Of a stretch of DNA of 64,000 nt, positions 14,260-43,715 are shown in pieces. Made by a program: the position numbers and the translations under genes. Source of the DNA: an uncultured virus (IMG/VR IMGVR_UViG_3300030109_004479). Its lineage: Duplodnaviria; Heunggongvirae; Uroviricota; Caudoviricetes. The notes under the pieces are model-generated. The model was given only the letters and a program-made list of their open reading frames with translations, was not told where the DNA came from and ran no database searches. The stretch covers positions 1 through 64,000 of IMG/VR virus record IMGVR_UViG_3300030109_004479, one strand, 5' to 3'. How positions within the stretch are numbered: position 1 is the stretch's first letter; each line of letters begins with the position of its first letter.

Positions 14260-16023
14260 ATGGCTAGTATTAACAAATTTGAACCTTACCTTGATTCTAA
14301 AACTCAAAAAATTTGCGTAGGGGGTTTATACATTCCACCAACAAATACACTTACTGCTTTATTATATGGTTTTGGTAAGCATAAAAATTTAAATGCTAAA
14401 GAGTATTATTTTTGGAGAGTCTGTGATGAGCTTTGGAACAACGATGAACTTCCTGAAAAACTTATGGTTAGGCATCCGTGGGCTACCTCTATGATTAAAG
14501 CAGCTCTTGGGAATAAATACTTAGCAGTGGGAGGTGCCGCTTCTTCTGGTAAATCACACACAATGGCTGCTTATGCTATTGTCTGTTGGTTAGCTGCGCC
14601 AAGGGATACACTGGTTCTTTTAACATCAACCACGTTACGGGAAGCACGAAAAAGGATATGGGGTTCAGTGATCACATTACTAAACGTTATAAATGGTGCA
14701 CCGTTCAGGATACGGGATTCAATAGGAAACGTAGCTTATATAAACGAAAAAGGAACCCTTATAGAAAAAGCAGGTCTTAGTTTAATAGCTTGCGAAAAAA
14801 GCAAAGAAAAGACAGCAGTTGGTAAATTTATAGGTATTAAACAAAAAAACGTGCTGGTGGTAGCTGACGAGCTTAGTGAACTTAGTGAAAGTATTTTACA
14901 AGCGGGCCTTACAAACCTATCTAAAAACCCAAGTTTTAAGCTTATTGGTATGAGTAACCCTGCTTCAAGGTACGATGCTTTTGGAGTTTGGGCACAGCCT
15001 GAAGACGGGTGGGACTCTGTTTCTATTGATGCAGACGAATGGAAAACAAAATACGGAGGGAGGTACTTGAGATTAGATGGAGAAAGATCCCCCAACATTA
15101 TAGCAGGAAAAACAATATATCCTTGGTTGCCTACAGAAGAAAAACTACAAGAAGACAGGGACTTACTAGGCCCTGATTCTAGAGGCTATAAACGAATGGT
15201 ATCTGCTATTTTCTTTGAAAATGACGAAGAAGAAACAATATACTCTGAATCAGGTATAAGTCGTTCAGGTTCAATGAACACCGTACAGTGGAAAGGGAAC
15301 CCTATACCGTGTGCAGGTCTTGACCCTGCTTTTAGTAATGGAGGAGATAGGTGTATTCTTTATACAGGGTTAGTTGGGTATGATTTAAGTGGTCAGTATG
15401 TGTGTGAACTAAAAGATTCTATCCCCCTTTTGGACGATGCCACCAACACAGCGGTGCCTCGTTCATACCAGATCGTGAAGATGTTACGGACGGAACTGGA
15501 GAAAAGGAAGATTGATCCTGCAAATCTGGCGGTGGACTCGACGGGTGCTGGGAATCCTTTTTGCGACATAATCGAAGCAGAAGGTCTTTTAAATATTTTA
15601 AGGGTATCATTCGGAGGTAAACCTTCTGAGAAAAGAGTGTCTGTCAATTCTAAATTAATTGGTACAGAGCTATATTCAAACAGGTGTAGTGAGTTGTGGT
15701 TTGCTGGTAAGGAGTTAATGAGGACAAAACAATTGTTTGGTATATCTAATGAACTGGCAAGTGAAATGACAGGCAGAAGGTTTGAAATGTACAAGTCAGG
15801 GTCTTTAAAAATGAAGATAGAATCAAAGCCTGAGTTTAAATCTCGCTTAGGAAAATCGCCAGACGTAGCGGATGCTGCTTTCCTTTGCATCGATGTTGCT
15901 CGCCAGAGATTAGGATTGGTTGCAGCCGAACCTCCTAATGCTCAAGGAGTAGCGCAATCAGGGTCTCAAAAAACTATTAAGAATCTTACGGGTATGTTAC
16001 GTGCTCAGGTTCTTGCAGATTAA
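14260..16023 (+). CDS. terL: Terminase large subunit
   Basis: Walker A GGAASSGKS, Walker B VVADE, MSNP; nuclease motifs GLDPA..GGD, AVDSTGAG, SPDVADA. Confidence 0.9.
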   Translation: MASINKFEPYLDSKTQKICVGGLYIPPTNTLTALLYGFGKHKNLNAKEYYFWRVCDELWNNDELPEKLMVRHPWATSMIKAALGNKYLAVGGAASSGKSHTMAAYAIVCWLAAPRDTLVLLTSTTLREARKRIWGSVITLLNVINGAPFRIRDSIGNVAYINEKGTLIEKAGLSLIACEKSKEKTAVGKFIGIKQKNVLVVADELSELSESILQAGLTNLSKNPSFKLIGMSNPASRYDAFGVWAQPEDGWDSVSIDADEWKTKYGGRYLRLDGERSPNIIAGKTIYPWLPTEEKLQEDRDLLGPDSRGYKRMVSAIFFENDEEETIYSESGISRSGSMNTVQWKGNPIPCAGLDPAFSNGGDRCILYTGLVGYDLSGQYVCELKDSIPLLDDATNTAVPRSYQIVKMLRTELEKRKIDPANLAVDSTGAGNPFCDIIEAEGLLNILRVSFGGKPSEKRVSVNSKLIGTELYSNRCSELWFAGKELMRTKQLFGISNELASEMTGRRFEMYKSGSLKMKIESKPEFKSRLGKSPDVADAAFLCIDVARQRLGLVAAEPPNAQGVAQSGSQKTIKNLTGMLRAQVLAD

Positions 16024-16221: not shown

Positions 16222-16827
16222 ATGGCTATATTTGACTTTCTTCGTCGCAGGAAAAAACTAAAAGAGGATCAAAAGCTTTCTCCTACTAAATACTTACAAG
16301 GCATGAAAGATAGCCCCATTGGGATGGGACAGCCTGAAGTTATAGGTAAAGGTTCTGATCCAGATATTGCCCCTTTAAGTGCTCCTCGTACAAGACTTGA
16401 CTCTATTAAACCCTTAAATATCCAAAAGCCTAAACAAGATGAAAGGGAATTTGATGTGGAACCTTATGGATTCCTTTGGAACAAAGACAAGGTTAAGCGA
16501 GATGTAAGAGCTGAAAAACCAAATGTAGATATTTTTAGGGATAGAATGATGTCTAGAAGGAATAAGAGGAAAAAAGATGCTCAAGCACGGTACGAAGAAC
16601 AAACAGCAGCTAGAAGTAAAAGAGCGGGAGCTAGAAAAGAAAGAACTCCTGAACAAAGGCAAAAAGAATATGATGAAGCGTTTAGTAGGCCCTTAGGAGA
16701 AAACACAATAATGGGAATAGCTTCTGCAAATATAGCGGGAAGGCAGCAAGCTATGATAGACAGGGCCGCTAAGAGACGAGAAGAAAAAAGAAAAAAAGAA
16801 GCAGCTAAAAATAATAATAATAAATAA
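16222..16827 (+). CDS. Hypothetical basic protein, possibly internal virion
   Basis: 201-aa ORF heading the operon that contains the giant protein. Confidence 0.6.
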   Translation: MAIFDFLRRRKKLKEDQKLSPTKYLQGMKDSPIGMGQPEVIGKGSDPDIAPLSAPRTRLDSIKPLNIQKPKQDEREFDVEPYGFLWNKDKVKRDVRAEKPNVDIFRDRMMSRRNKRKKDAQARYEEQTAARSKRAGARKERTPEQRQKEYDEAFSRPLGENTIMGIASANIAGRQQAMIDRAAKRREEKRKKEAAKNNNNK

Positions 16828-16828
16828 T

Positions 16829-18229
16829 ATGGGCCTCCAAGATTTAATTTCTACCCCGTTCGGTCAATCTATGTCTTCTAGACGTAGAACCGTTTCTCCA
16901 CGTTCTGCACGTTTTAGGAGTGCCGCAAGAAGAATAGGAGAGTTTACTCCAGAAGGCAGAAGGTTAAAGCTCCAAGGGGAGCTTATGAGAATGGATGAGC
17001 CTAACGTAGCTACTCCAGAATCTAACTCTTTGATGCAGCAAGGAGAACAACTTAAAGCTGCCTATGCTAGCGGAGCTTTTGAAGGAGCAAAAGATTTAGC
17101 TCCTTTGAAAAGACAATGGTTTTCTGACGTTAATGCTGCAAACTTATCTGCCCAAGATAAAGAGGGTATAAGGCGTATGTTTGTTGAGGATTTTGATAAA
17201 GCAGGAACTGCTGCTGACGCAGAACAAAAAAGAGTTTTAGATTTAAAGAATCAAGAGTTAGCCATAAAATCTACAGAGCAAAACTTACAAACTGGAAAGC
17301 AGCTCGGAGACCTTAGGGAAGTTGGTCTTAATAAAGCTCGAAGGGATTTTAAACAAGAAACAGAAGCTTTAGATCAAAGAGATGAAGTTCAAGATGCACT
17401 ACAAAAATTTAATAGAGCAATGCAAAAAATTGATGCAGATTTTGCTGCGGGCACTTTGGACGTGGGTCGACGAGAACGAGAAAGAAAGAAAGAAATAGCT
17501 GACCTTTCTATTATAGGGTCTAAGTATCGTTTGGATAACAATCAAGTAGGCGCAGTTAATGCTGCTTTGCAGGGAGCAGGAAGCGAACTTAGGTACGAAA
17601 GATTAAGATCAGATAAGAAAGAAGATCGTGAGTTTTCTAGAGAGGTTTCTACACAAAACTTTATTAATAGTACGGCTGCATCTATAGGGTATGTACCTGA
17701 CTTTGCTAAATCTCAACAAGCTCAGTTGAATGACGCACTAAATGCGGTTAAAACGTTTAGGGAAGGACAAGCATCTTTAGCTTCCAACGTTAAAATTACA
17801 GAAAGCATAAGTTCAGCAGTGACTGAATTGAAATCATCTATTCCTTTAGAATCAGACGATGTCCCTGATGAAAAAACCGCAGCTCAAGTAAAGCTTACAA
17901 GTTTATTATCTGGATTAGAAACGTACAGTAGTGTACTTCCTCCTTCTGCTAAATCTGAAATAGATAAAGAAGTCACAACGTTAAAGACTAAAATAAATAA
18001 TAAAGGATGGGTTAAAGTAGACCCTTCTACAAAAACAGAAGTCGTTGTTAAAGAACAATATTTATTGTTAGCTAATGACATACGAGCTACTGCGGATAAA
18101 CTTATATTTTTAAATGCAACTTCTGGTGTAAAAGAAAAAGGTCAGACAACCCCTGTTAATACAAGCGACTTAAATAATTTACAAGGAACGACTCCAAAAA
18201 AGAAAGCTCCAACTCCAGCTCCCAAATAA
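16829..18229 (+). CDS. Putative internal virion (ejection) protein
   Basis: 466-aa helical, A/Q/K-rich ORF immediately upstream of the giant protein, as in podovirus ejection-protein clusters. Confidence 0.5.
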   Translation: MGLQDLISTPFGQSMSSRRRTVSPRSARFRSAARRIGEFTPEGRRLKLQGELMRMDEPNVATPESNSLMQQGEQLKAAYASGAFEGAKDLAPLKRQWFSDVNAANLSAQDKEGIRRMFVEDFDKAGTAADAEQKRVLDLKNQELAIKSTEQNLQTGKQLGDLREVGLNKARRDFKQETEALDQRDEVQDALQKFNRAMQKIDADFAAGTLDVGRRERERKKEIADLSIIGSKYRLDNNQVGAVNAALQGAGSELRYERLRSDKKEDREFSREVSTQNFINSTAASIGYVPDFAKSQQAQLNDALNAVKTFREGQASLASNVKITESISSAVTELKSSIPLESDDVPDEKTAAQVKLTSLLSGLETYSSVLPPSAKSEIDKEVTTLKTKINNKGWVKVDPSTKTEVVVKEQYLLLANDIRATADKLIFLNATSGVKEKGQTTPVNTSDLNNLQGTTPKKKAPTPAPK

Positions 18230-18235
18230 AAACCA

Positions 18236-21200
18236 ATGGCTGAAAAAAACAATTTTTCTGACTTTCTCCCTTCTTCAAATAAAGATACTACAGGTAAGTC
18301 TTTACAGTGGGGGCCTAAACAAAAACTAAATACGTGGCAAGGAGGGTCTTATGATCAATATCTAGACTACGTTTTTGATTACACGGTAGATGCAATAGGC
18401 TCAGGGGACTTCGATCAAAATAGATTTGATGGAATAATGAGTGCTTCTTATGAAAAAGCTAAATCAATAGACCCAGAGAAGGCACAAAATTTCAACGATT
18501 ATAAAAGTTCACTATTTTCTGATGATGTTCCTTTTGAAAAAGAAGCTGCTTTATATGAAAAGTTAAACACTTTTAATCCTAATATCCATGACCAAGATAA
18601 AGTAAATTTTTTTAAAGCACACCATGTTGATCTTTATGGTGAAGATAAAGAAAACCAAACTCCTTTTTCTAAAAGAAAACCTGTAGGAGAAAATTTATCG
18701 CAAGAAGAACAAGTATACGCTGCGACTCGTGATCATTTTGATTCTTTAAAAAGAGAAGTCACGGGTGAGTTTTCTGAAAATAGGTTGCCTTTTTCTTCTT
18801 ACTATGATGAGGAAGGTAAAAGACAAGTTAGCGTTGCATCTACACAATTTCTTACAAGTAAATTTCCAAACTTTAAAAATGCTTTCAATAAAGCTTTAGA
18901 TAGTGGAGCTATTTCAAAAGGAGATTTATTACGCATAGCCCCGCAGTTGCAGTTTTACGGTGATTTCAAAAAGACAGTAGATGAAATACAAAGAACTAAT
19001 AAAAACGTAACAGCGGTACAAGATAAATTAGTAGAGCTGAGAACTGCGGCTAATAATATTAAAGAACAAGAGGGCTTTGATAGGGTAGGGCCTGACGATC
19101 TTTATGATTTTAGAGCGAGATTCAAAGGAGACTCGGAGCGCAGAAAGGTTATGAGTGAACTAGCCCAACAAAATGTTGAGGCTAGTAAAGCGTTATCTGC
19201 GATAGAAATTTTAGTTCGTTTAAACGATTTAGAGTTAAAAGAAAAAGCTGCTGTAGATGCAGTTACAGCTACAGATTATTTTGTTCCTGTTAAAGGTTTG
19301 TTTTCTGATGCTTTCAAAGCAAGTTTTAAACGCTCTGTAGGAGATAGGTTTGATACGGCTATTAATTATATTGGCTTGGGTAGTGGGCGAGAAAATATTT
19401 TTAGAAATAGGATGCCTTTAGATCCTCTAACTATCAATGCCGATAGATTAATTAGTAGGCTAAACCAAGAAGAGCGTGAGTTTTTAACAAACCCCAAAAA
19501 AATAGCGGATTCTTTAAGAGCCGCTGTACCTTCATTAAAGGATTCTTCTGATGAGGAGATACTAGATAGTATGTTTCATGTAGTGGGTTCTGCGTTAAAC
19601 AACTCAGGAGCTTTAAATTATTTTAAAGATGACAAACAAAGATATTTAAATATTAGGAAGTTCGCTGACTTTGGTATATCTGCCCACCCTCAGTTAATGC
19701 TAAACAGAAATGTGTTTGAAAAAGCTGTAGCCCAACACCCTGAGTTAGATGAGCAGGAAAAAAAGTTCTTAAAAGAATCAAGAAAAGATTATTTAAATAA
19801 TACTTATAATAATTCTGTTAGGTTAATTACAGAAGCAGGTAGGGGAGGTAGGCAAATATATAAAAGTTGGACGAAGTATCTTGAAGAAAACTTAAAAAGC
19901 TCAACAGATAAAAAGAAGTATGAAATACTCGACGACTTTTTAGCTGATGAAGATAACTATAGTGAGCTTGCTGCTTACGGGGAAGCCTCAATAAAAGGCA
20001 CTGTAGATGGAGGGCTCTCCGTAGTTTTTGGATTAGGGGCTCTTTTGGGCAGCGAAGGAGCTTATTACAATTATGAAAAAGCAAGACAACGGGTTAATAA
20101 AAGAAAAGAGCTAGCAGCTTTGTTTGGGGAAGATGGCAAAATTCTAGAAGCATTTAACATACTTCCTGAAGTGGGTGTTGATATTGCACTGACTGGAGGA
20201 ATTTCAGCGGTGATTAAAAAAGGAACCACAAAACTTTTAACGAAGCAACTTGCTTCAAAGGGGTACAAGATATCTTCAAACGCTGCTACGAGCAGAGCCT
20301 TAAGAGATGCTTTTTTAACTACAGATTCTAAACTTTTAAAAGATAAAGCCGCTCGTCTTATCCTTGATAAAGATGGGTTAGTTCCGTTAAAGGGATCGTC
20401 TACTAACGTTATAACAAAACTTGTTGATGATTTAACTGCAATATCAGGAGGTAAAACAAACAAGCTTACAGATTTAGGAAGAGTTGCTTTTAGTGTAGGA
20501 GCACCCGCAGGAGTTAGATCAGCAAGCATGTCTTATTACACTTACATGGATGCAATGCCTGACTCCATGACGTATGAGGAAAAGAGAGAAGCCGCTTTAG
20601 GGGGTGCTCTCTTTAGAGGTTTAATTACTGCTGGAATCACTATTGGCTTTTCTGTAGCAGGTAAAGGAAGTGTTGAATCCTTTGGTGCTAAAAGAATGAG
20701 AACCATTCACGATATTAAGGGGATTAGACACGCAAGAGCTAGTTATAAAGAGCTTATCAAAATGTCTTCTGCTACAGATAAAGCAGGAAATTCTTTATTA
20801 AATAGAATAGTAGCAGAGGTTGCGGCTAAAACAGGAAGAGAAGGTTTAAGCAAGTCTATTGCTCACGGACTTACTGGATTAGTCACAAAAAAAATACCAT
20901 CAGCTTTTAGAAAGTACGTGCTTCCTGAGAGTATAGAGGAGGGACTAGACGAGTTTTTAGGGAGCTTTGTTGATCAGAAAGTTTTAAATGAAAACATTTC
21001 TTTCGGAGACAGGATGGCTAATACAATACACGCTTCCGTCTTAGGAGGGTTTATGGGAGGAGGCATACCTGCAATAGCTACTTTAGCAGCCAAAGTTAAA
21101 AGTAAATTAAAGCTAGGCCCTGATGAGTCAGCAATAACAGAAGCAGTATATAGAGAAGCTGTTGATGAGGTTATAGCTGAAGCCGCAGAGATTAATGAAA

Positions 21201-24200
21201 AAGCAGCAGCACTGCGGGAGAATGGGGCTCCCCTGACAGCTGAAGTTTTAGAACAAAACAGGAGGCAGCTTCTTTCTGGTTTTGTTAAAGACCCTGTAGC
21301 ACCAGCAGGTTCTTTTAATATGACTACTACTGCCAATACTGTTATTGATGCAGATAGAGATCCTGAAGAAGTAGTAACGGTTTTAGCAGAAGACATTACA
21401 GGGATGTCTGAGATAGAAACAAAAGAAGGATCTAACTTATATCAAGTAGAGTATGTGCCTAAAGATGGTTCTGGAGAAGTTCGTGTAGCTTATACTAAAG
21501 ATGCTAGCGTAGCTAGAGTTAGTGTTAGGAAGAAAAAAGTAAATGATAGGCAGGAGTCTTCTCTTGTAGAAATAGTAGACTATCCTTTGATTCCAAATGT
21601 AACAGATCAAGCGGATCAATTAGCCAAGCAAGAAGGAATCCAATTAGCAGTAGATACTTTTGTAGATCAAAATAGGGTAAGCCTAAAAAATAATGACATA
21701 ACAGTAGTTACTGATCCGTCAGAGGATACACTGATACAATTAGGTTTAGATATAGATCCTGAATCTGAAAAATACCAGAGCATAACGGGCAATGAATATT
21801 TCGTTGATATTACCAATGAAGGAAAAGTTGTTTTGGTTTTAAACACAAACAACATAGCGGAAACATCTTCCTCTATTCCTAAAGCAAGAAGGTCTAAGTT
21901 TGTTAAAAGTTCTTTTGTCGAATCAATGGCTGCTGCTTTTGAATTAGTATCTAGCAGAAATAAATTTTTACTTTTAGATCAAGAATCTACAGGGACTCTC
22001 AGCCTTAAAGATTTCATAACCAGAGAAAGAACAGCAATCTATGAAGAGATGAGCCCTTACGAAAAAGACAGGGCTGCTTCTTTTGTTTTAGGGGAAGATC
22101 TTGTTGAGGGGTTAGAAAGTAAAGTAACAGATAAAGAAATTCTAGTTGCTGCCCACATTAATTCACTGGTTCAATTTGAATTATTGGGAGGTACTAAAGA
22201 AGTAGAAAAATCTGCATGGGGAGGTAAAGCACGAGGAGGAGCATTATCAAATTCAGTAAAAGAAAAACTCTTAGATATATTAGATTATTTAAGAGCTGCT
22301 GTTAAAACTGCACAAGATACTTTTAGACCAGTTATTAGAGAGTACATCAACAACATATCCGATAAGTTAACTTCAGAGTTTTTTACTGAATTAGAAAAGA
22401 TTACTCCTGAAGAGTTTAGTAAAATAATTGAAAACAACGAAGGCGTAGAGGGAGCTCAAGGGGAGCAAGGAGTAGAAGGTGTTGAAGGAGTAGAGTCTTT
22501 AGAAGACATACCAGTTGCCTCTCAAACATCTATACCTCAAGTAATAAACGTTTCTTCTGCACCTTCTCTAGATATCCCAATCGTAAAAAGTTTAGACTTT
22601 AACGTACCCCAACCTGAAAAGGCTGGCGTAGTTCACGGTCTTAACCAAGACACAGGGGATACTGTCGTCATCGAAGGACTGAGCATAGACGAAGCTCAGA
22701 CATATGTAGAAGGAGTATCTATAGTTAATAGCAATAACCCTGATTTAATAGAACCTACAAAAGTAAATAACTTATTACTTGAGGAAGGGTCAGATTATAA
22801 TTCTGATGCCAATACTAAAGTAGCTTTAGTTTCTTCAACTAATTCTGTAGCTGTAGATTTAAGTGATGTAAGAACCGATGACGATTTGTCTCCTTTAAGA
22901 GAAGCTATACTTCAAAACCCTTTATTTTCAAGGATGATACTAGAGGGAGAATTTGATGGGAACAACGTAGCTTTTGTTATTAAGATAAGACAAGGCCAAC
23001 CCCCTGTTTTATTGGCAGTTCCAAAGTCTGTTGATTTTAGCAGAAACTTAACAGAAGAAGATATAGTAGCTCTTAAAGAAGCTGATCCTGTAGGAGTCAG
23101 AATAGGAAGACTGTCTGATCCTGTTAAAGAAAAAATAGCTTCACACATAGAACAATTAGCGGATAAAGGTTTAGGTATTCGTCTTTTGGATGGGCTGCCT
23201 GTATCAAACGTTAACCCCGAAGTCCAAGACCAAACAGATTTAGATGTTCAGTTATCTTCTATATCTTCTCCAGAAGAAGTTGTTGAGCCTACAAAAGAAG
23301 GCGTAGCCGACATAGATCCTGATGAAGCTGAAGAGGCTCCCGACATAAAAGATAAAGCTATCAAAAAACAATCTCGTTTAGCAGATAAAATCTTACGCTC
23401 TGTAAAGAGGAGATTATTAAGAGAAGGAACTCAAGCTTACGAAAGTAATGGAGAGCCTTATGTCGCTTGGTACGACTCTGCTAGAAAAGCTATAGGTATT
23501 AATTCTGAAATGGTGAAAGATTTGCTAGCGCAGAACAAACCAGCTGCTGGTAAAGCTATAATAAATCTAGCTATTGATGAAGAATTAATTCATCAAATAT
23601 CTTGGGAAACTTTAACATACAAAGAAAGACAGAACGCCATAGAAGAACTTGTCAACGCTGACAAGTTAGGAGCTAACGCTCTTATCAGAATGGCTAAAGA
23701 ATACAATGAGCCTATAAAAGGGTACCCCGTTGAAAAAGTAATAACGTATTTACGTATGGGTCAGCCTGAGTATTTAGACTTACCCGAAGGTGTAGAAATA
23801 AATAATAAGAACAGAGCTATTAAAGAAAGCTTAGAAGAATATTTATTTGAAGAGCTTGTAAGAAAACATGTTTCTTTGGTTAGTAGACGAGGCTCTACAG
23901 AAACTGATTTTGATTGGCTGAGGATTAAAAAAAACCAAGGAATACTATCTTTGTATAAAAAATACATAGAGAACTTTTTGATGGGTAGGATTAGATCTAA
24001 AAACCAGCTCAACAAAGATTCTAAGATGGGGCCTTATTTTGAAATAGCTGTTAACAAAATAGCTAGTGAGTTTAAAGCAGCTAGACAAGGATTCCGTAGG
24101 AAACCTGACCCTACACAATTAGATGATTTAGATATAGACTTAGGAGTCTATGGAAAACAAAACACTTTAATAGGTAATGAGATAAACACAGTCGCTCCAG

Positions 24201-27200
24201 AAGAAGAAGAGCGAGAGGAGTGGATGTCAGAAATAGACCCTGAAGAAGTAAAGAGAAACGTTGTTGTTGGCAAGACTGTAGGTACAAGAAGTCCTTCTGC
24301 AAAAGGAACAGAAGGTCAGGGGGCTGACCCAAACAATCAGGTAGATCTAGCATCTTTAAGATTAAACCCTGAAGCGTACAAAAAGAATGCACTTGTTCTT
24401 TTAAATTTCCCTATAGTTGCAAAAGAATTTTCAGGAGATCCTTTACTAGGAAAAGTAAGGAAGGCTAAAAATCCTGTAGACAAAGCAGAGATTAAAAAAG
24501 AAGAAGCTATACAAGACATAGCACAATCTAAAAAGAAACTTGTAAGCGATTTAATAAGTTTTAAAGTAAAAGAAAAATCAGATCAACTTAAACCTGAGAG
24601 AAAAGAAAAAGCTGACGAAGCAAGACAATCTTTTAAAGATTCTGAGAAAGCTTCAAATAAACTGAACTCAGATGTTAAGAGATTAAGGACTTCTCTTACA
24701 CGAGCTAAGAAAAATTTAAGAGCTTCTATTAGGAAAGAAGTTAAAAATATAAATTCTGAAATAAGGAAAGCTTCTGCTGTAGGCAACAGTGATAGAGCAA
24801 AAGCTTTAGAAGAACAAAAAGCAGAGATTGAGTCTGTGCTTTTAGAAGAAAGTAAACCAGCTATTCTTATTGAGGAATTAAATTCTAAAATAGAAGATTT
24901 ATTACGCAAAGGAGCCAGACTAAAAGGCAATGTTAGATCAGCTAAAACTGTTATGAACAGTGCTCTTAAAGAGTATAGCAAACCTAAAGTCCTTAGATCT
25001 GAAATAAAAATATCCTCTGCGAAGGCAGTAGACATTATTGAAGAGTTGGCTCAAGATATTAAAGACGGAAAGCCTGTTAGGGTAGGAGCTAAAAGTTTAA
25101 TTGTTAAGCTAGAAGCAATTAAGAAAAAAGAAAATCAACTCACTAAGTTTAGTGCAGACCTTAAAACTAAAACAGATAGACTGTCCTCTAAGCTAAAAGC
25201 TTTAGCAAAAGCTGAAAGATCTTATCCGATAGAACAAGCAGACAAAATTTATTCTTCTTTAAATGATGTAGCTACTAAGAACTTAGGCATCCTTATAAGG
25301 ATGTTCCCTCAAGACTTGAGAGTGTTCGCTTCTCTTTGGTATGATGGTGCAAACTTAATAGCCAACAGGTTTGCTGATGCTTACAATATTTCTTTGGAAC
25401 AATCATCAGCCATACTAGCTGTTAATAGCCCACAAAAAGACTGGTATATGAACGTCGCTTTAGCAGAACGGACAATGCATATATACACTGCTCGTCAGGG
25501 ATATGTTTTTGATTCATCTATGGCTAATAACTTTTTAAAAAGAGCGGGAGAGCCAGAATTAAAAACAGATAAAAATGGTAATTCTTATTACGAAGGCAAC
25601 GCAACTCCTGTATATGATGACGAAGGAAACCACGCAACAGACAGCGAGGGCATACTTCAATTTAATAATTGGGACAGCCAGAAAGCTAAAGACAAAAGAG
25701 ACAAAGAAGCTAAGATATTAAATCTTGGATTAAGAGGTAAAGCACTTAAAGACATACAACCTATATCTTTTAATTTTAAAGGTAAAAAAGTTTCTTACAG
25801 CAAAGAAGCACTGCAAGCTCGATTTGTAAGGATGTTCTCTGAAGCTACAGCAAACACATCTTTTAGAGACCCTAAGACTTTTAATGTTATCAGACCTGAT
25901 GGAGCTATCTTAGATAGACCTACTTTATCAGACAAAGGTAAACCTCGTTCTATAGCGTGGGGTAGTTACTCTACTATAGAAAAGTCGATTAGAATACTAG
26001 AAGCTCCTCAAGATCAAGAGATGGAGTCTGTATCTAAAGAACTGGGGCTCATGCATAAAGTCCGTTCTTTTTACAATAACATCGCAGACCCTTCAAATTC
26101 TTCGGGTCATGTTACTATGGACACACACGCCATAGCTGCTCTTTTACTAAAACCTGTCAGTGGAAATAGCACTGAGGTTACTCAGAACTTTGGTGGTAAG
26201 GGAACATCATCTGATGCTACTTTGGGGTTGAGTGGATTGTACCCTGCTTTTGCTGAAGCATATAGATCAGTAGCTTTCCAAAACGATTTGTCGGGAGCTA
26301 ACTATTTAGTTAGAGAAGTTCAATCAATAACATGGGAAGCGGTCAGACAATTGTTCCCACCTAAATGGAAGAGCAATAAAAACCACGTAAGGGTAGTAGC
26401 AGAAATATGGAATGACTATGAACTAGGAGATATTACTTTTGAAGAAGCTCAAGAAGATATAATAAAGTTTGTTCAGACTTCTAAGGCGAAAGGTATGCCT
26501 GAAGAAGAAGCGTTATCTGTAAGCGAAACGATAGACTCCGCTAACCTCAAAAGAGGTATAGGTGTAGGAAGACCTGACTGGGGGCAAGCTGCTCCATTGA
26601 CAGTTAAAAAAGGTATAGAAAAACCAAAACAATTTAGTTCTATATCTTGGCAAAACTTAGACGCTAAATACAAAAAATTAGCTAACACTAAAAACGTACA
26701 AAAACACGCAGATCAATTATTTAATTTATTGAGAGAAGCTTCCGACCAAGCAGAGAAAAGAATACCAAATTCATTTACTTTTCAAGCTCCTGATTTTAGA
26801 TCGGGTGGTATTGAAAGAGATATTGAAGTTGTAAAAAATCCAAAAGGAGATGATTTACTTAAAGGAGAAAACAAATTAAGCAGAGATTTCATACTAACAC
26901 CCGCCAACAAATATGCATTTACTCCTTCTCCTTCTATATATGTTTCAAGAGCGTTAGGGCTTCAAGAGTTTCTTCTTGTATCTGAAGTGATAAAAGAAGA
27001 TGGCTCTCTATTAGTTACAATCAGAAGTGGTACAACAGAACCTTATTATCTTTCAGGAGCAGGACTAGAAACTGCAAGGAGATTCTATGGGGAAGAAGCA
27101 GAAATAGTTTTTGATGTGGGGGAGGATTCTTATAACGAATCTCTAGCTGAACAAATAAAAGACTTGTCTCCAGTTAGATACGAAGGGGGGAGTGTAATGC

Positions 27201-30200
27201 CTTTAACTTTGAGGCTTGCACCACTTCAGGATGATCTTAAATATGAAGAAGTTCCTGTTGATGACGACTTAAATAGGTTAGCTCAAGTAGAAAACACATT
27301 GCGTGATCCCTACGATCACGCATCAAGATACGACGAGCATGGTTCAGCTATGGTTTCTGTAGATGACAAATTAAATACAAATATAAGAAACATTTTAGAA
27401 ACCGTAGTTAATACTAAAAATGTTAAAACTGGGGAGCCTACTATATTTAAAGAAATGGCTCAGACTTTACTCGAAACTTTTTCCGACGATCTTTTAAATG
27501 TCCGAGTTAGGAGATCTGATAAAGATCATTCTTACTCAAGTCCTGCTCGTGGGATTTTCTTAGCCAACCAAGAGACACTTAATGTTCCTTCTGATTACCC
27601 AAACGCTATAAAAGAAAGTGTTACACAAAAATTAGAAACACTTACAGTTAAAGAATGGTTGCACTCAAAATTCAAACACCCAATAGATGCGATACTAAAT
27701 TGGGACGGAATAAAAAAAGGGTTAGAATATGAAAACGATAATTACTCTGCGCTCGATGAAACCCCTGACATAAATGATTACGGAGATTATTCTGATCTTT
27801 CAGACGAACAAAAAATTATTCTTGAAAGGTTTGTAAAATATTATGCAGGGGATAGAGAAAGTACTGATAAGGATCATCTTAACTTTAAAAAGAAACCTGA
27901 ACTTCAAAAAATTATTAGCTGGAATAATGTTGAAGATTTTACTAGCTCTGAATTTTTTCTTAATGAAGGCAAAAATTTTGCAGCTGATAAAACAAAAGTA
28001 AAAACAACAGCCAAGTTTATATTAAAAGGTGTGACCCCATCAACTGTAATCCATGAGATTATGCACCAAGCTACCCAAAGGCAGTTTGATAAATTTATTG
28101 AAAGTAAACTCCCAAGAAAAGACTTAGATAAAAAAGCATTAAAGAATGGGTATAAAAAAGTATCCGAAGATCAGAACACACCTCAGCCTATACGGGATAT
28201 ACTCAAGCTTTACTTAACAGCAATAGATTACGGAGACACTTATCTCTTAAAAAAATCAAACTTTGGTTTTGATGCGCCATCTAAAAGAACTACTTATGCT
28301 ACGTCGGCTATGAGTAACTATAATCCTACTTCCAAATCTACTTTTTATGGGTTAGGAAATATAGACGAGTTTGTTGCAGAGGCTTTTTCTAATATTGAGT
28401 TTCAAGAATGGTTAATGTCTATTCGTGACCCTGAGGCTGATGCAAAAGGAGAGAGCAAAAGTCTTTGGGATAAGTTTGTTGATCTTATAACAAATCTTAT
28501 TAACAATTTTAGATTAAACCCAGATTATGTCTCTTCAAGAGGAGTTCCTATTCGAGAGTCTCTTCTGAGCTCAACAGTAAAAGCTGCCTTAGAAGTAGCT
28601 TCAATGAATAGGTATGTTGATCCTGAGCTATACACAGCAGAGCAATGGGCTACTACGTCGGGGGCCAAAGCAGCAATAAAAGAAGCAAAGGCATTAAAAG
28701 CACAGAAAAAGGTTAAGTCACCAAATCCTCAGAGAGTTGCTGACGCTGATCCTAAGTATGGCATTTTACGTATAGAAGCGTTGGGGTTAAACAAACCCCA
28801 TGCTACAAGAGAGTTCTTAGATAAGAACTATAATTTAAAACAAGAAAGCAGTCAAAACACTCAACGGCCTAATACGGTTGAAACATATAGAAACTTGTGG
28901 GATTTCATCGAGGGAACAGCTGAAGAAACATATAATAGAGAAGCTGCTGAGGATATAGTTAGAGGTAAATCATTTAAAGACTACACGTTTAACATTTTGG
29001 ATTGGGGTTCAGGAAAAGGTTTAGGATCTCCCGCTCTAGAAGAACTTTCTAAAAATAGTTATGTACGTAAGGGAGGAAAGATGGGAGGAGAATGGGGAAC
29101 AGATTTTGCATTTAATTCTTTGGAACCTTATTTCCAAGATGCAGAAGGATCTGTTGCTCCTACTCTTAAAAAGAACCCGCCCGCTGAGTCTCAAGATTTT
29201 ATTATAAACAACGTAGTTATGAACGTTGTCACGGCTGACGAAAGAGTTGAGATTTTAAAAGACATTTATAAATCTTTAAAAGAAGGAGGCAAGGCAATAG
29301 TAACTGCTCGTAGTGTACTTGATGTATTTAATACTAAAGGTCTTACAGTGGTAGGCCCTGCTGAAATCGTAACTAAAAATAGTTTTCAAAAAGGTTTCAA
29401 CAGTGAAAGTCTTAATGCTTTTGTTAAAGAAGTTTTGCCAGAAGCTATAGTAAATATTAAAGGATCAAAAACTTTTGATGTAAGAATTAACCCAGAAGCT
29501 GTTTTAATTGAAAAGCCTTTTGCGGCTGGTGCAGATGTGGCTTCGGATTCGGAACAGGGACTACAGTACTCGAAAATTCGTTCAGGAGATTTGCGTAATA
29601 AAAGGCAAACTATTTACAGTGTTCAGAAAGAAGCCGAAGCATCAGCAGAATATTTTACTCCAAAGAAGTTACAAGAACTTAGGAAATTAATTGAAAGCAA
29701 TGTACCCCCTGAAATTATTAAAGGAGCTTCTTTAACTTCCTACACAAATACATTTAGGCTTGGAGGGCATGTAGAACTTGAAAGATATATAAGAAACAAT
29801 TTTTCAGGAGAAGACGCTATTAAGGCTATAGAAAAAATTACAGGTAAACCTAACTCATCTAAGACTCCTCCTCTTAGAAAACCGTACACGACCATTCGTC
29901 AGATAGGTGGAAAATCTTTTAAAGATTTTATGCAGAACTTTTTTACCCCTTATTTAAATGGTAAAGCTGATTCTAAGATTATAAAACTTATAGAAGATAA
30001 TGTTCCTGAAAACATTATTAAAGAAGCTAAAGAAGTTGAGCCTCCAAGGAAAGTTGATCTTGTTGTAAAAGGAAATTGGACAGGCGAAGAAGCTGTACAA
30101 GCAGTAGAAAAAATTACAGGTAAACCTAACTCTTTAAAACCAACTACCCTTAAAGCTAGACAAGAACCCAGATCTTTAGGTGGAGAATCTTTAAAGAATT

Positions 30201-33200
30201 TTCTTAGGAATTATATGGTTCCTTATTTAAGTGAGTTCGGTGGTGACTTGGAGTCTGATAAGGATCTTAAACAATTTACTAAAATCAGAGGAGACGAAAC
30301 CTTCTCTGAAATGAATGCATCTAGACAAGAAGCAACAGCCAAGGCTGATGATGCAATTAAAAAAGCTTCGTTCGGCATGGATGTAGAAAGGATCATGGCA
30401 TTATTTGGGCCTAAAATGTACGACGCTAAACTGGCTAAAGTTCTTGTAAAAGAATCAGCTCAAAACTCTTATGATGCTCTTAAAGATTTATTTGAAATTG
30501 ACCCAAATTTAAAACCTGAAATTGAATACGGTTCTTGGACATACGGCAATAGCGAAATAGATAAAGAAAGAGCTTGGAAATGGGGGCAGATTATCAAAGG
30601 AAGAAAATATGGAGAGGTAGCAGTACCTGAAGAATTAATTGAAGACTCAATTAAGGCATTAGAAAAAGGCAAAGCATTTGGTGATAGTCAATGGTTTTAC
30701 GTCAGGGATAATGGAATAGGAATGAATCCTGAGATTATAAATAATGCTTTCTTTACTTTGGGTGGAAGTTACAAACAATCTAAAAAATCATCAGGAGGTT
30801 TTGGTCTTGCTAAAATTCAAATGCTGCACTCAGCGGAAGAAGTTTTTATAAAAACAGTTAGGGACGGAGTTCAGACAACTGTTCGTGTAGACCACGACAC
30901 CTTGATGCAACAAAAAGATTTTGATATGGTAACTACAGAGGTACCAGAGGGAACCCCCTCAGGTACGCAAGTCTGGTTGAAGTATCCAAAAGAAATAGAT
31001 GGTCAAGCAGTTGATATGAAACAGTATGAGTATTTGCCAGACCAAAACATTTATGATGAAAACTTTGAAATAAAAATTAATAATGATGGTGAACAATCAT
31101 CGACCTTAAATATAAATACTTTTGATCAAGATCATGGGTTTGAAAAAACTGTTGTAAAAACACCTACTGCTGACGTCACAATTCGTGCTTTAAAAGTAGG
31201 CAAGTACGACAAGGATGGGAATAAGATATACAGTTTATCTTCAAAAGAATCTCCTTGGGGCAAGTCTTATGATAATAGCACTATTAAAATATTTTCTAAT
31301 GGTTTACTTCAATTTGAAAGGAAAACCCCCAACGTTGAACCCAATGATCATTTTGGGGACAAACTGCCTTATCATTTCATAGTAGACATTAATTCTAATG
31401 CAGACACTGCTAGCCTTGATTATCCTTTCAACAACAACAGAGAGGGTTTCTCTCCTCAATGGACAGGCAAAAGTACTTCAGAACCTACTCATCCTATTCA
31501 AAAAGTTATAGATGACGTTGTAAACAAATACAGAAAAGAATACCGTGAGCTCACTTTTTCACAAGAGTTTGATATTATAAAAGGTATAGATGGGGCTGAC
31601 CCTAAACCAAGTGTTCCTGTTGTGTACAACAATATGAACTTTGATTTAAACAGTGACGAGTTATCGCTAATGAATGATATATCTAAAATTATTTTTGATA
31701 TATCAGATGATCTCTTGGATGTATATAAACATGATTATTTTAATAATGAAAACAGTCTTCGTAGTAGGAACTACGTTGAAAGAGCTTTAAAAAATAATGA
31801 GAAAGTTGAGCATGAAAAAGATCCTTCTAAGAATGATAAAGCAATATCCTACCACTACGGGGCAGCCCTATCAAAAAATTGGGGAGGTGTAAATACATCT
31901 AAAGAACCTAATTTAATTTTAGTAAACCCTGTTTATTCATCTACTTTGTTTGATAAAGAAGGAGACATCAGAAGTGATATAGGTATAGAAGGGTTTGCAG
32001 ATTACATTACAGATATTATTTTCCACGAAGTAAATCACGTAAGTCAGAATAACGAAAACGCTGGATTTACTTATGCTTTCTCTGCCATCAAAGGATATAA
32101 ATCTATGCTTGATCCTATCTTTCAAGACAGTAGGCAAAGAATATCTGAACTAATACAAAACAATTATGACACCATCAAAAGAATTAGACAAAAATTTGTT
32201 AAGGGAAGCACTAAATTTCTTGACGCAGAAATACAAGGAAACGGGTTCATTGACTCGGTCAATGAATCTGACGATGTACGTGGCAGAGAAGTACGGAGCC
32301 AAAGGGAAGCTATTGAAGAAAACTTTGGAAAAAACTTCCCCCATGATGAAATCCAAGTCACCGACAGAGGTGTTACTTTACTTGAAGCGTTTAGCAAAAG
32401 AACCTTCAAAGCAGACGAAGTAAATAACGATCCACCTATACAGCGTACACGGATCAGTGCACAGCCAGAAAATAATTGGTCATCCCTTGCAGGTAAACAA
32501 GTAGGAGGTTTATATATTTCTTCTGAAGCTATTGAAGACGGTTACTCTATTCTGGAGAAACCTTCTAACAAAGTGAAGAAAGAACAATATGAACAAGCCA
32601 AGCTTAGATTAGAAGCACACTTAGAAGAAGAAAGAATAAACGCAGAGTCAGAAAACGACAACTACGTACCTTTTTCATATGATCTTGTTTCGATTGAAAA
32701 AGATCAGGTTCGATTCATGTTAATGTCTGATCTTAAAGAAGCTCATCCTTTTGTTGTAGAATCTTTAAGAGTACCACACAGTGCAGACGGAGACATACAA
32801 GAAGGTCGTATAGGAAACGCTATCTTCCACAGGATGGAAACTATTTTAGGTCAACGCCATCCTCTTTACAACTACCACAAAACTATCACCGATCTTGAGT
32901 CTTCTTTAGGACTACTGGGGTCACCAAGTGGATCAGAAAGAGTATGGAAAGATCAGATCGAAAGTACAGGTTTGCGTTACGAAGATTTACTTAAAGAACA
33001 CCAGATTATAAAAGATAAGTTTTTCCCTGATGACCAAAGAACTAAGATCCACACGAAAGATCCTACGGAAGCTCCTGAGTATTTAGAAGCTACTGAATCA
33101 TGGAATATGCTCACTGACATATTGAGAGCGGATATACCTGTAATGGAGGATTCAAGGGGAGTTAAATACTTACAGCGTTTATTGTACAGATCGAAGGCAC

Positions 33201-36200
33201 ACCCTGAATGGAAAAAAGGGGGCAAGTACTGGAGTCTTTTCTTTGGGCCTAACGAAAGAAAGTTAAGAAGATACATAGAAAGATCTAACTTCTTTAAATC
33301 TACTATTGGAAATAAAGTTTTAGCTTACAAGAACACAACAGATGAATTACTTAATTCTGTTTATGTGCAAGCAGGTAAAGAGATACCTTCTCAGGTCATC
33401 ATGGATGCTACTGGATCAACTGATTTAAATGCTCCCGAAGAAATACTTGCACAGATTCAAGAAGATTATCTTAACGAACTGGATGGCGTAAACACGAATG
33501 AAGAGTTAACGGCTGAAGAGAAAGAAAAAGCATTCTTAGATGCATTTAATAATCGAGAGGCTGCTAAATCTAAAGCGAGAACAGAAGCTATTAAAGCAGC
33601 TAAAAGAAAGCAAAACCAATCTATAGCAATAATAAGAAATGATTCTCCAGAATTGGCAGACCATATAGTTTCTTTAAGAAAGTTAGCTGACACTTTATCT
33701 TCTGAGGTAGCTGACATAATTTCATTCACGGCTCCTGATCTTAAACTTAGAATAGGTGCTGGTCTCCAATTGTATTTAACAAAACAATACAGAATATTTA
33801 CCTACAAGAAAGGCGAGTGGGCTAATGAGTTCTTAAATAAAGAGGTACACAAAGATGCAAGAGACTTAGCCTTAGATTACTTTGCAACACATTGGAAAGC
33901 TCAAAGAGTTGAGCACCTTATAAAAGAAGGGGGCCTTACAAAAGAAAGGGCAAACATCGAAGCTCAGGCAGAGCTAGAGTCTAATGATGACTTGGCTCAA
34001 CAAGCATTGGAAGAGTTCTTAAAAAGCTACGAAGGTGACTACGGTGTAGATAGTTTTAAGAGGAGGGGCAATTTACCTGAGGGAATGAGAGCTGCTCTTG
34101 GAGAGTTTAAAGAAGAATCTAACTTAGATATCTTATACAGAACAGTAATAAATCTTGGAGGGTTGGCTTCTAAACTAGCTCTTAAAGATCGTATTGTTAG
34201 TGAAGGAATAAAAGCAGGGTGGTTAGTAACTCAAGAAAAGATAGCTGAGGAAACCGCTAGAGCTAAGAAGTTTGACAGACCTAATCCATATAAAGATTAT
34301 GAAGAGGTCAGCAAAACTACATCTTCGGATAGCGATGTTGCTGAAGTTGCGGGCTCTGAAGGAACCACAAAATTAGGAGCTTTTAAAGTTAAGTTTAATC
34401 CTGATGGTACCGCCAAAGAAGCACCAACAAGAAAACCACCAAACACTGATCCTTTAATTAATTACAGAGTTAAAACAGAAGACGGTTCTGTCGAGGAAAA
34501 AGGTAATTTGTTAGCGCATCCTGAAGTGGCTAGCTACATAAGGTCTATACTTAATCCTGAAAAAGCAAAAGATTTAAACTTTGCTGAACAAGCAGAGAAT
34601 ATATTAGCTCAGATATCTGGATTGAGTCTTGTATCTAAAACAGCGGGTTCGGTACCCTTTTATGAGAGACAGGTTCTAGGCTCTTTCTTATTCTTAAGTC
34701 AAAACGGGTTACCCGCAAGTGAGATAGCAGGTTATATCCCACAACTTGGTTCAGAAATTAAAAGGCAAGTGTTCCCTTCAGGAGTATTTAATAAGAGAAG
34801 TTATACTCAAAACGATTCTGCCGACAGGGGCAGCATGGGTTATTACGCACAGCTCTCTACTTTAGGAGTTCTAGACGGTGGTGTTAATTATGCGTTGTTG
34901 CGAGATTTGTTAGGGGGAAGTAAAGGCTTTTCCATATCAAGAGAACGTGATGCCGAAGATATTCAATTAGAAATTGATAACTTACAAGACCCATCCAGAG
35001 CAGAAAAGTTTAAAAGCAAGTTGTTCCCAGAAGGAAGTGTACAAGAAAAGACTTTGTTAAAGGCAGCTGGCATGATCGCAGGTACTGGAAGTATCGCTTC
35101 CAAGAAGGCGCAAGCTTTGGTTTTAGCATTAGATAACGCTATGAAAATCGTTGCTTTTGAATATGAAAAGCAAACTATCTTAGCCGCTAGACAAGACTCA
35201 ATAGAGGCTAATAGAAATGACATGTACAAAGACATGACCAATGCAGAGGTTGATGCCCTTGCAGGTGATATCATTTTGAAAACGCAACAGTCTAGAAGTC
35301 AAAGTGCTCCTATCGTAAAGTTCTTTGCAGAGTTTCCTGTGGTCAGAGTCATCACGGCTCCGTTTGCTAGGTTCATAGGTGAGAACCCAAGACTGATGAC
35401 TAATATTCCACGTCAGGCAAGAGCCGAACAGAAAAGTGAGAACCCTATCATACAGGCAAGAGGTAAACGAAGAGCCAACGGATTTATAGGAACAAACTTT
35501 GTTTTGTATATGGCAATTCCAAAACTTGTTCANNNNNNNNNNTGTTTGTAACTAATCTAAATGACGAGGACGAAAGAGAATTTAGAGAAGGCAGTCCTAA
35601 GTGGTCAAGAATCCAAAACTTACTTTATGTCAGACAAAACGGGCAACTAAACTCCATGAGTTTCAGTTATGTTCATCCTATGTCTCCAATCTTAGATTCC
35701 CTAATGCGGGGTTTTGAGAGTGCAGTAAGGGGTGAACCTAAAAAAGCAATAGAAGCTCTAACTACAGATTACCTATTAAACACATTCTTAAACGAGCAGA
35801 TTATGTTCTCCGCAATGATGGACGTGTTCGTATTTAATGAAGACGCTAACACGGGCAGAGAAATCTACACTGAGTATTCCCCCGATGCTCTTCAGTTGAA
35901 GTTAAAGTACATTTATGAAAAAGGTTTAGAGCCGCCTTCATTAACGGCCACTAGAAAAATAATTAAAGCAACAGGAGATGCCGACTACAAAACAGGAGAG
36001 GATGCTAGAACATTTATGGGAGCTCCATACTACAGTCCTGAGGGGGAGTTCTTTAGGCATATAACTCCTGTTAAATTCCACGCACTTCAGTTAGAGCAAC
36101 TAGCAAGGAGACGCTTCAAAGAAATTCAAGGCGGGTTGTATGGTGAACTCTCCAGAAAAAATGTACTTCTTAACGAAGAAAAAGGTTATCAAAATAAACA

Positions 36201-36510
36201 AGTCCAAAAAATTATTAACAGGGAATACCAAGCGATGGAATCAGCTTTGAAAGATGCTCGTGCTGCTTACTTAGTTTACTCAAAAGCTTTAGGTGAAACA
36301 GCTGTTAAAGATATAATGAAAGGAGCTAGACTTAGAAAAAGTTTAGTAGATATAGTAGCTAAGGGATACATAACCACTGAAGACTTCCAAAGCGAAGGAC
36401 AAGGTATAAAGGATTACTTGTCAGACAGAAACTTAGACATAAGAAGACAAAGAGTTATAGATGCCTACAAAAATAGTATGGGTGGATCACTCCTTAGGAG
36501 TCTTGATTAA
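18236..36510 (+). CDS. Giant (~6,000 aa) polyvalent/ejected protein: zincin, DUF7178-like, SAM methyltransferase and GHKL ATPase domains; interrupted by an N gap
   Basis: Open from 18236 to the Ns at 35533-35542; the frame of ORF 35656-36510 is open back to the gap. Motifs HEIMH...EFVAE, LDWGSGKG...NVV, KESAQNSYDA...DNGIGM...GGFGLAK, HEVNH, WYDG...SPQKDW...KVRSFYNNI...VTMDTHA. Confidence 0.8.
35533..35542. other. Assembly gap (10 N)
   Basis: Run of N in the sequence. Confidence 1.
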
Positions 36511-36670: not shown

Positions 36671-36949
36671 TTAAAGCTCGTCGTCAATATTATTTGAATT
36701 ATTTTTAGGTTCTCGTAGAACCATCTCATAAAAACTAGTTATAGCAGCAGCTTTATCGGGCCCTTTATACAAAACCACATCAAATTTAGATTCAATATTT
36801 GGTATGTATGAGTGGGCTACTACTGCGTAATTGTCCTCTCCTGAGCCCGTCTGAGCATACATACATATGCTTTCATAAGGCCCTTGTTCAGGTTTCTCTA
36901 GTTTTAATAGTACTTCCCTGACTGCGTTAGGTTCTGTTGCTGTTTGCAT
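36671..36949 (-). CDS. Hypothetical protein
   Basis: 92-aa ORF overlapping the upstream gene. Confidence 0.6.
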   Translation of the reverse strand: MQTATEPNAVREVLLKLEKPEQGPYESICMYAQTGSGEDNYAVVAHSYIPNIESKFDVVLYKGPDKAAAITSFYEMVLREPKNNSNNIDDEL

Positions 36950-37235
36950 AGTTGTCTATGTGTTCATTCAAAGACTCAAGAGTATCTTTTACGCTACTCT
37001 TGTGTTGTTTTACTTTCTTCTCAGCCATAATGACTGTAGAAAAATGTCTATTAAACATCTTACCCACCTCTACCAAAGTGTACCCCCTAGCCCGTGCCGC
37101 AAACATTCCTAAATGCCGCCACTGACACACAGCCGCATCTCGTGTTCCGCTTTTTAAATCTTCTGCCGAATAGCCCGAAACGCTAGATAAAGCATCTAAT
37201 ATATGTGCCGACGATGTCTTTTTATGTAGTATCAT
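36927..37235 (-). CDS. Stand-alone DnaA C-terminal (domain IV) HTH protein
   Basis: SAEDLKSGTR...RHLGMFAAR..GYTLVEVGKMFNRHFSTVIMAEKKV matches the Bac_DnaA_C pattern. Confidence 0.8.
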   Translation of the reverse strand: MILHKKTSSAHILDALSSVSGYSAEDLKSGTRDAAVCQWRHLGMFAARARGYTLVEVGKMFNRHFSTVIMAEKKVKQHKSSVKDTLESLNEHIDNYANSNRT

Positions 37236-41131: not shown

Positions 41132-41160
41132 TTGCTGGGACTATTATTTAGATATAAATT
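41132..41160 (+). promoter_or_regulatory. Sigma70-like promoter for the portal gene, leaderless type
   Basis: TTGCTG-N17-TAAATT, 7 nt before ATG 41168. Confidence 0.5.
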
Positions 41161-41167
41161 TAAGCAC

Positions 41168-43388: not shown

Positions 43389-43715
43389 GTGGCTAATAAA
43401 AAAGTAACATCTAGAAAAATAATTTCCCTTCCTATACCATTAGATTTATGGTTTAAGGATGTCAAAAAAGTTGAAGAGTTGCGTGAAATCTTGGGATCTG
43501 AGGCTTTGCAGACGGCAATTGCTATACTCAAAGAAATTTCAGGCCCCACCAACGGAGGAATTGGTTCCGACCCAGTTACAACTAGTCAACGTTACGCTTG
43601 GAGCGCAGGGTACCGTGACGCTTTCAATGATCTCTATAAGTTAACTAAATATAGAACTGAAAATAAAACACAAGTACAGGAAGAATGGAAACACATTCAG
43701 ATACAACAACAATAG
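43389..43715 (+). CDS. Hypothetical head-module protein
   Basis: 108-aa ORF between portal and scaffold. Confidence 0.6.
   Translation: MANKKVTSRKIISLPIPLDLWFKDVKKVEELREILGSEALQTAIAILKEISGPTNGGIGSDPVTTSQRYAWSAGYRDAFNDLYKLTKYRTENKTQVQEEWKHIQIQQQ

Follow-up and report, generated by a model that had tools for sequence, protein, structure and literature searches.

The 64,000-nucleotide stretch analyzed here (the window) makes up the greater part of a virus record of 67,291 bases from marine metagenomes (IMG/VR IMGVR_UViG_3300030109_004479) and encodes a giant protein of about 6,085 amino acids (aa). We found that a short peptide, Q-x-[ST]-x-I, is conserved in homologs at six joints between the modules of this protein, where it delimits exchangeable cassettes. 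Sequence comparisons suggest that the tag behaves as a processing code of polyproteins does, and a zincin metallopeptidase (MPTase) embedded in the same chain is its most likely reader.

A peptide tag recurs at module junctions of a giant phage protein

The original prediction, made from the letters alone, listed seven Gln-x-Ser/Thr-x-Ile peptides at apparent module junctions. All seven are present in frame (7/7) in the open reading frame (ORF) 18236-35551 (+), at residues 1672, 1975, 2799, 3777, 4013, 4736 and 4934. With an eighth match at 25400 (residue 2389), the pattern occurs 8 times against 1.65 expected, a number reached by 0/2000 global and 0/2000 local shuffles. The proposed comparison with shuffled controls thus favored the motif but fails a look-elsewhere correction: Q-x-[ST]-x-I is only 9th of the 28,800 possible three-position patterns in the giant protein. 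A blind clique search of the protein with 5- and 6-mers did not recover the motif and did not beat 8 shuffles. Within the single protein, then, the pattern loses its significance on correction and could be chance; a composition-based disorder proxy was uninformative (0.53-0.80 at the seven sites versus 0.61 overall). The significance of the tag rests on homologs.

A search with the C-terminal region against long proteins returned 12 matches: the protein itself, ten close homologs (P0003-P0012; 46-92% identity overall) and the distant P0013. Six sites (24158, 26630, 29564, 30272, 32441 and 33035) are retained at the aligned junctions of the homologs, with one exception, an Asn at position 3 of the 26630 site in P0006. 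The site at 23249 reads ELSSET or ELSSGT in five homologs, IKSSVP in two and QKSSIP in one, and is identical only in the near-identical P0003; its Gln is lost in 7/9 homologs covering the region, which the fragment P0005 does not. The eighth match reads QAAAVL in 9/10 homologs, and we take it as chance because it lies inside the DUF7178 module and is not kept. Neither 23249 nor 25400 being conserved, both were dropped as tags. Across 53 distinct junction 26-mers (68 sites), Gln is present in 53/53, Ser/Thr in 52/53 and Ile/Val in 53/53, while the flanks show 2.6-3.7 bits of entropy; these 26-mers were partly picked by the motif, and the alignment of homologs is the non-circular check. The placement of the motif at module junctions is thus confirmed for six of the seven predicted sites, whereas 23249 is doubtful. 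The protein is organized as follows.

18236..36510 (+): giant gene, about 6,085 aa; the near-identical homolog P0003 has 6,085 aa
18236..23248 (+): N-terminal scaffold of weakly hydrophobic Gly/Ala-rich helices and acidic linkers, without the motif; no family match
23249..23266 (+): QLSSIS, doubtful site, Gln not conserved in the homolog alignment
23579..23593 (+): EELIH, zincin-like but degenerate (Glu in place of the first His), within the 303-aa segment that precedes site 24158
24158..24175 (+): junction tag QNTLIG, opens the DUF7178 module
24158..26629 (+): DUF7178 module, 824 aa (Pfam PF23802, E 1.7e-17)
26630..26647 (+): junction tag QFSSIS, opens the zincin module
26630..28675 (+): zincin (MPTase) module, candidate processing protease
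28052-28066 (+): HEIMH of the zincin module, residue 3273; third-ligand Glu (Glu3378) at 28367-28369
28676..29563 (+): SAM-dependent methyltransferase-like domain; weak Pfam/NCBIfam matches, below cut-off
29564..29581 (+): junction tag QYSKIR, opens the variable slot
29564..30271 (+): variable slot, occupied in the window by a 236-aa module with an internal duplication and no known family
30272..30289 (+): junction tag QFTKIR, opens the GHKL cassette
30272..32440 (+): cassette of GHKL ATPase and HEVNH (32024-32038), 723 aa (Pfam PF13589, E 2.2e-06)
32441..32458 (+): junction tag QRTRIS, opens the 198-aa module
32441..33034 (+): 198-aa module of no known family, with a tag at each end in 10/10 homologs
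33035..33052 (+): junction tag QRTKIH, opens the C-terminal scaffold
33035..36510 (+): C-terminal scaffold, with a homologous counterpart in a sister clade and no conserved motif inside

The zincin module has an insert of ~150 aa ahead of its HExxH helix. The EExxH of the EELIH segment is retained in the 9 homologs covering it, as well as in P0013 and in the distant locus L091. By eye, the window at ~21830-22180 (residues 1200-1315) resembles a further decayed zincin-like domain without metal ligands; the zincin profile gave no match there. A hydropathy scan of the giant protein returned marginal membrane helices only, and the 198-aa module had no match in the protein-cluster atlas, Pfam or NCBIfam.

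Modules are exchanged from tag to tag

When homologs are divided at the tags, the resulting pieces align over their full length (among the matches listed), and whole modules are gained, lost or replaced between tags, which bears out the domain shuffling that had been suggested as another role for the junctions. The slot at 29564-30271 holds one of five unrelated modules across relatives (236, 415, 214, 193 or 155 aa), or none. P0010-P0012 lack both the variable slot and the GHKL cassette and retain one tag at the joint. The GHKL cassette of the window is 50% identical to that of P0003, though the flanking modules are 95% and 98% identical, and 98% identical to that of P0009, though the flanks there are 56% and 64% identical. 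Contigs from two studies have 29548-30268 replaced by 481 other letters. Judged from these alignments, the tag is where putative effector cassettes are exchanged.

A breakpoint search blind to the motif in 14 proteins placed 127/192 segment ends no more than 15 residues from a tag, where 7.8 were expected, and 143/192 within 30 residues; these ends are not independent, since protein pairs share events. Chance matches could be invoked for a pattern that misses significance in the single protein and of which 2/8 occurrences are not conserved. For the six sites, however, they are refuted by the conservation at aligned joints together with these breakpoints, and chance is now barely credible.

Several slot modules deserve mention. 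The 155-aa module (L087:15392-15856, L083 and P0014) is ADP-ribosyltransferase-like (Exotox-A_cataly, E 2.1e-05, below cut-off) and is common to lineages otherwise ~50-60% identical. By eye, the 415-aa module (L005:15500-16744; P0004 3767-4181) seems to combine a 2H-phosphoesterase and a ParB-like domain, with no Pfam match, and the variant peptide QFSYSK lies between these two parts. P0006 carries at residues 3717-3733 (L088), just before a tag, a 16-residue remnant of the end of the 155-aa module. This remnant points to a deletion in which one tag and the bulk of the module were lost while the next tag stayed in place.

The constraint on the tag fits a peptide rather than a DNA site

A peptide at exchange points could also be a recombination footprint, spread by duplication and microhomology crossovers and without function in the protein. 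Crossovers do cluster at the tags, and in the sister clade described below uniform Ser codons (AGC at 7/7 sites in L017, with a gene share of 0.33; TCN at 3/3 in L014) hint at DNA-level homogenization: copies may also have spread by DNA exchange, which speaks against a purely peptide-level view. However, motif DNA takes 37 distinct forms among 46 sites in nine loci. In these 37, Gln is CAA 21 times and CAG 16 times, position 3 is ACN, TCN or AGT and Ile is ATA, ATC or ATT, so that third positions are free and Ser/Thr comes from unrelated codon boxes. The six sites of the window share 6-11/18 nt pairwise, and six crossovers scatter at -17, -3, +41, -93, +70 and +25 nt from the Gln codons. Tags also persist at 24158 and 33035, joints without a swap among the examined homologs. 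Because codons vary synonymously and crossovers scatter, these data fit a constraint acting on the peptide, with ordinary recombination in conserved linkers. As sole cause, a footprint is largely refuted, and we consider it decidedly improbable.

Integron- and shufflon-type cassette systems use a conserved DNA site and a fixed crossover point. A site-specific system of this type was rejected here, given the 6-11/18 shared nucleotides and crossovers ranging from -93 to +70 nt.

Related proteins carry other versions of the tag

We further investigated distant loci, of which 160 were fetched by DUF7178 patterns (the best 80 of 185 and the best 80 of 97). A sister group (L009-L014, L017 and L039) shares DUF7178 and, where the locus extends there, the C-terminal scaffold (E down to 1.5e-40). 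At the same joints it carries a different tag, I-[RA]-[YLRF]-S-[RK]-A, with 5-8 matches against ~0.5 expected in six sister proteins (the pattern was fitted by eye), and its modules likewise align tag to tag. The register of the two tags agrees, I-Q-R-T-R-I in the window corresponding to I-Q-R-S-R-A in L017. The D-I-R-[FY]-S linkers of other polyvalent proteins, which the original prediction named by analogy, thus found a counterpart: proteins with the same C-terminal scaffold carry DIRYS, IRFS and IQRS in the same register and at the same joints. L091 has a third version, [ST]-[QR]-[IF]-G, with 4 matches against 0.1 expected (also fitted by eye). P0013 has a single tag-like peptide, and its zincin lacks the first His. 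In DUF7178 proteins on other scaffolds (L006-L008, L019-L021) the sister tag was not seen.

From the fetched loci we screened 78 ORFs of at least 2,500 aa, and 10 were flagged as enriched in one of the three tag patterns; the screen is rough and missed even the close clade itself. Three of the 10 (L028, L060 and L160) were set aside, on inspection showing scattered matches. A search for a cultured relative found three phage records with part of DUF7178 and no match to the sister-clade zincin. In one of these records, Roseobacter phage CRP-738, DUF7178 lies in an 835-aa protein (gp40; L163:10285-12792) between portal and capsid genes, and this protein of a cultured phage is a possible model for DUF7178.

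A zincin module is the candidate reader of the tag

The protein's own zincin peptidases, or else a prohead protease, had been proposed as processing enzymes. The GHKL-linked HEVNH was rejected as a necessary protease, as P0010-P0012 lack it and keep the tag. The HEIMH zincin stays a candidate: its HExxH and Glu3378 are retained in all 10 close homologs, and its profile finds the sole HExxH domain that the sister clade has, as well as the one in L091 (E 1e-06 to 1e-12). In both, the zincin sits before DUF7178, not after, and the module appears to have moved within the chain rather than been lost.

We modeled the zincin from an 18-sequence alignment (pLDDT 80.6), a single-sequence fold (pLDDT 36) being unusable. 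Compared by fold, the model matched PhiM1 gp48 at Z 6.6 (rmsd 5.9, 158 aligned), and anthrax lethal factor and PPEP-3 at Z 5.6 and 5.3, respectively; a Foldseek search of the model against the PDB gave no match at E<=0.001. The zincin profile matches two podophage ejection proteins, 9sfn_G at E 3.5e-08 and 8vb2_A at E 0.0027, and in each the HExxH and the Glu line up; the regions of PDB chains 8vb2_A (379-489) and 9sfn_G (411-556) that carry these residues align to the zincin clade of the giant protein. The domain of PhiM1 gp48, called endolysin/exotransglycosidase-like by its authors (PMC11440229), may thus merit re-annotation as a zincin; the words 'protease' and 'peptidase' are absent from the available text on gp48 in that paper.

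The giant gene probably encodes an ejection protein

The ORF as read ends at a stop at 35551, within reach of a 10-N gap (35533-35542). At this gap, contigs from 3/4 sequencing runs are 8 letters shorter. Because the gap is 8 letters too long and P0003 has 6,085 aa, we regard the stop as an artefact and the gene as reaching 36510, with ORF 35656-36510 as its C-terminus, split off by the over-long gap. Its neighbors upstream are:

14260..16023 (+): terminase large subunit (PHROG 2, E 1.6e-11)
16222..18229 (+): a pair of smaller genes (201 and 466 aa) just ahead of the giant gene, probable ejection proteins 1 and 2

Three ejection proteins in a row are the established podophage gene order. By order and composition, the two smaller genes are probably ejection proteins 1 and 2, although family scans (Pfam, PHROG, NCBIfam) of the 201- and 466-aa products gave no match. 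The giant protein is probably the third and largest ejection protein of a podovirus-like phage, of polyvalent type, because of this gene order and the homology of its zincin to internal virion proteins.

The window also encodes a family A DNA polymerase and a helicase (family scan), tail fibers (PHROG) and a capsid-like protein. Probable portal, scaffold and major capsid genes lie at 41132-43381, 43685-44848 and 47224-48543, and for none of them did Pfam, PHROG or NCBIfam give a convincing match; the capsid candidate has matches in large viral clusters without a name, one of which carries Phage_capsid_3 on 11% of members. Elsewhere we observed a small protein like the DnaA C-terminal DNA-binding domain (36927-37235, minus strand; E 6.3e-11), a glycosyltransferase family 25-like gene amid the tail genes (52422-53117; weak match), and two or three very long related tail-fiber-like genes with common repeats (55003-67294 and 3-1811; 2,496 and 1,599 aa).

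These genes bear on whether another enzyme, either a host protease or an unrecognized phage head-maturation protease, cuts the tag. Most structural ORFs have no family name and a protease could be missed among them; Pfam, PHROG and NCBIfam scans of the window ORFs named no protease gene, many ORFs being without a family. Yet Q.[ST].[IV] has 0 matches in the putative portal, scaffold and capsid proteins (ORFs 41132, 43685, 47224), and a fixed host protease would not explain three clade-specific tags. Another enzyme is therefore improbable, and a prohead protease in particular appears disfavored as reader, because the presumed head proteins lack the motif and no protease gene was named.

Processing after ejection or docking without cleavage

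The sequences show the tag at the joints, the peptide-level constraint, the tag-to-tag swapping and the intact zincin motif; packaging, ejection, cleavage, the identity of the enzyme and its timing are inferred. The explanation that we favor, and hold to be somewhat better than even, is that the tags are post-ejection processing sites for the HEIMH zincin and that the linkers double as swap points. The giant protein would be packaged whole and then ejected into the host. The scaffolds conserved at its N- and C-termini are probably part of the ejection channel, and its middle would be a string of effector modules. After ejection, the HEIMH zincin would cut Q-x-[ST]-x-I, in cis or in trans, freeing the modules, while the conserved linkers would serve as crossover zones for module exchange. 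More speculatively, the cut could fall before Ile, alternate residues of an extended strand facing one side. Selection would keep the tag at joints because a new module is useful only with a site at each end. That the zincin clade sits elsewhere in the chain in the sister clade and L091, each with its own tag version, speaks for this reading.

A broader proposal, to which we give a little less than even weight, is that the family consists of self-processing polyproteins in which the zincin and a private five-to-six-residue tag co-evolve. The versions would be Q-x-[ST]-x-I in the window, I-[RA]-[YLRF]-S-[RK]-A in the sister clade and [ST]-[QR]-[IF]-G in L091. The protease would be mobile in the chain, and the tag a plug-in standard for trading effector cassettes released at infection.

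Several observations weigh against cleavage by the zincin. Some joints carry no tag: in the window this holds for the joint between zincin and methyltransferase, in P0008/L086 for an insertion of ~165 aa, and in P0014 and L039 for a single joint each. Likewise, 35/192 of the motif-blind breakpoint ends lie more than 100 residues from any tag. Another 35 long proteins with a similar zincin show at most a modest excess of the tested patterns, although other tags may be in use there. The fold Z-scores are all <8, weak alone. The clade also occurs in the short ejection proteins 9sfn_G and 8vb2_A, so the zincin may have another job; peptidoglycan attack has been proposed for such domains in the available text of 10.64898/2026.04.10.717836, 10.1101/2020.03.07.982082 and PMC11440229. 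Three virion proteins that carry HExxH or metallopeptidase domains stay intact as far as their sources describe them. According to the main text of PMC5512222, N4 vRNAP is packaged unprocessed; it was solved as one recombinant chain, and the model in the available text of PMC13434306 keeps its domains linked. P23-45 gp96 is reported as full size in virions (10.1101/2022.12.01.518664, available text), and PhiM1 gp48 is modeled over 1,103/1,263 residues in the capsid and thus apparently full length. With such HExxH relatives full length in the virion, cleavage, if it takes place, would have to follow ejection.

The main rival to cleavage is docking: the tag would be a recognition peptide that stays uncut, a strand that binds the scaffold, the EELIH domain or a chaperone, and would help fold modules into the capsid core or pace unfolding and threading during ejection. 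Docking accounts equally well for the peptide-level constraint and the position at joints, agrees with the intact state of related HExxH proteins and would give a role to the EExxH domain conserved beside the first tag. On the other hand, the sister clade keeps a tag although no EExxH turned up there in a regex search, the drift of one tag at all joints in a clade-specific manner fits a single co-evolving reader, and the zincin is the only intact catalytic candidate retained in tagged clades. We therefore regard docking as rather unlikely and favor processing by the zincin.

Comparison with known systems

The giant protein resembles the phage-type polyvalent proteins described by Iyer, Burroughs, Anand, de Souza and Aravind in 2017 (PMC5512222, main text): both combine unrelated enzyme modules with an HExxH...E zincin in one giant, multidomain phage protein. 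It joins disparate domains in one polypeptide (DUF7178, zincin, methyltransferase-like and GHKL; ADP-ribosyltransferase-like in relatives), has a zincin-like MPTase with HExxH and a downstream Glu, and comes from a terminase-portal phage, judged from the terminase (PHROG 2), a capsid-like match and a presumed portal. No named LPD domain was matched by Pfam in the giant protein, though remote members could escape Pfam. The 2017 paper predicted autoproteolytic release of polyvalent-protein domains by MPTases, by analogy with viral polyproteins, and cites processing of P1 DdrB. Neither a cleavage site nor a junction motif is named in its main text ('linker' and 'boundar' have 0 occurrences), whereas the giant protein shows a defined tag, tag-to-tag exchange and clade-specific versions. 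As in self-processing polyproteins, a motif recurs at domain junctions, with some untagged joints. In the literature searched, which covered few subscription journals, we found no description of junction tags in phage polyvalent proteins.

A related zincin domain is shared with the largest ejection proteins of podophages (PhiM1 gp48, 9SFN chain G). Like PhiM1 gp48 (PDB 8VB2, PMC11440229), 9SFN chain G, phi24B gp47 and N4 vRNAP gp50, as far as their sources describe them, the giant protein would be a packaged large protein in a three-gene arrangement, both presumed here. Unlike the giant protein (~6,085 aa), those proteins have 1,263-3,500 aa. The available text of PMC11440229, 10.64898/2026.04.10.717836 and PMC13434306 describes no junction tag or cut in them, and reads the zincin-like domain as a cell-wall enzyme or leaves it unassigned. 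In crAss-like phages, the available text of 10.1101/2020.03.07.982082 places a zincin beside the cargo proteins gp65-gp67 and calls a fused polyprotein 'likely cleaved'; compared by description only, that case differs in having no defined site.

Head-maturation proteases such as T4 gp21, phiKZ gp175 and SPN3US gp245 also recognize short codes. The tag is like these codes in being a short motif for a putative phage protease on internal cargo, and unlike them in being confined to the joints of the giant protein and absent from the presumed portal, scaffold and capsid.

Cleavage at the tag would define a new family of sequence-specific proteases; without cleavage, the tag would be a docking code not yet described for ejection proteins. 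In either case the tags give exact module boundaries for uncharacterized effectors (the 236- and 198-aa modules and others), and the 2017 proposal of zincin self-cutting becomes testable with recombinant fragments. To the systems compared here, our comparisons would add a candidate enzyme together with six candidate sites, natural tag variants of three kinds and their putative cognate zincins, and natural swaps.

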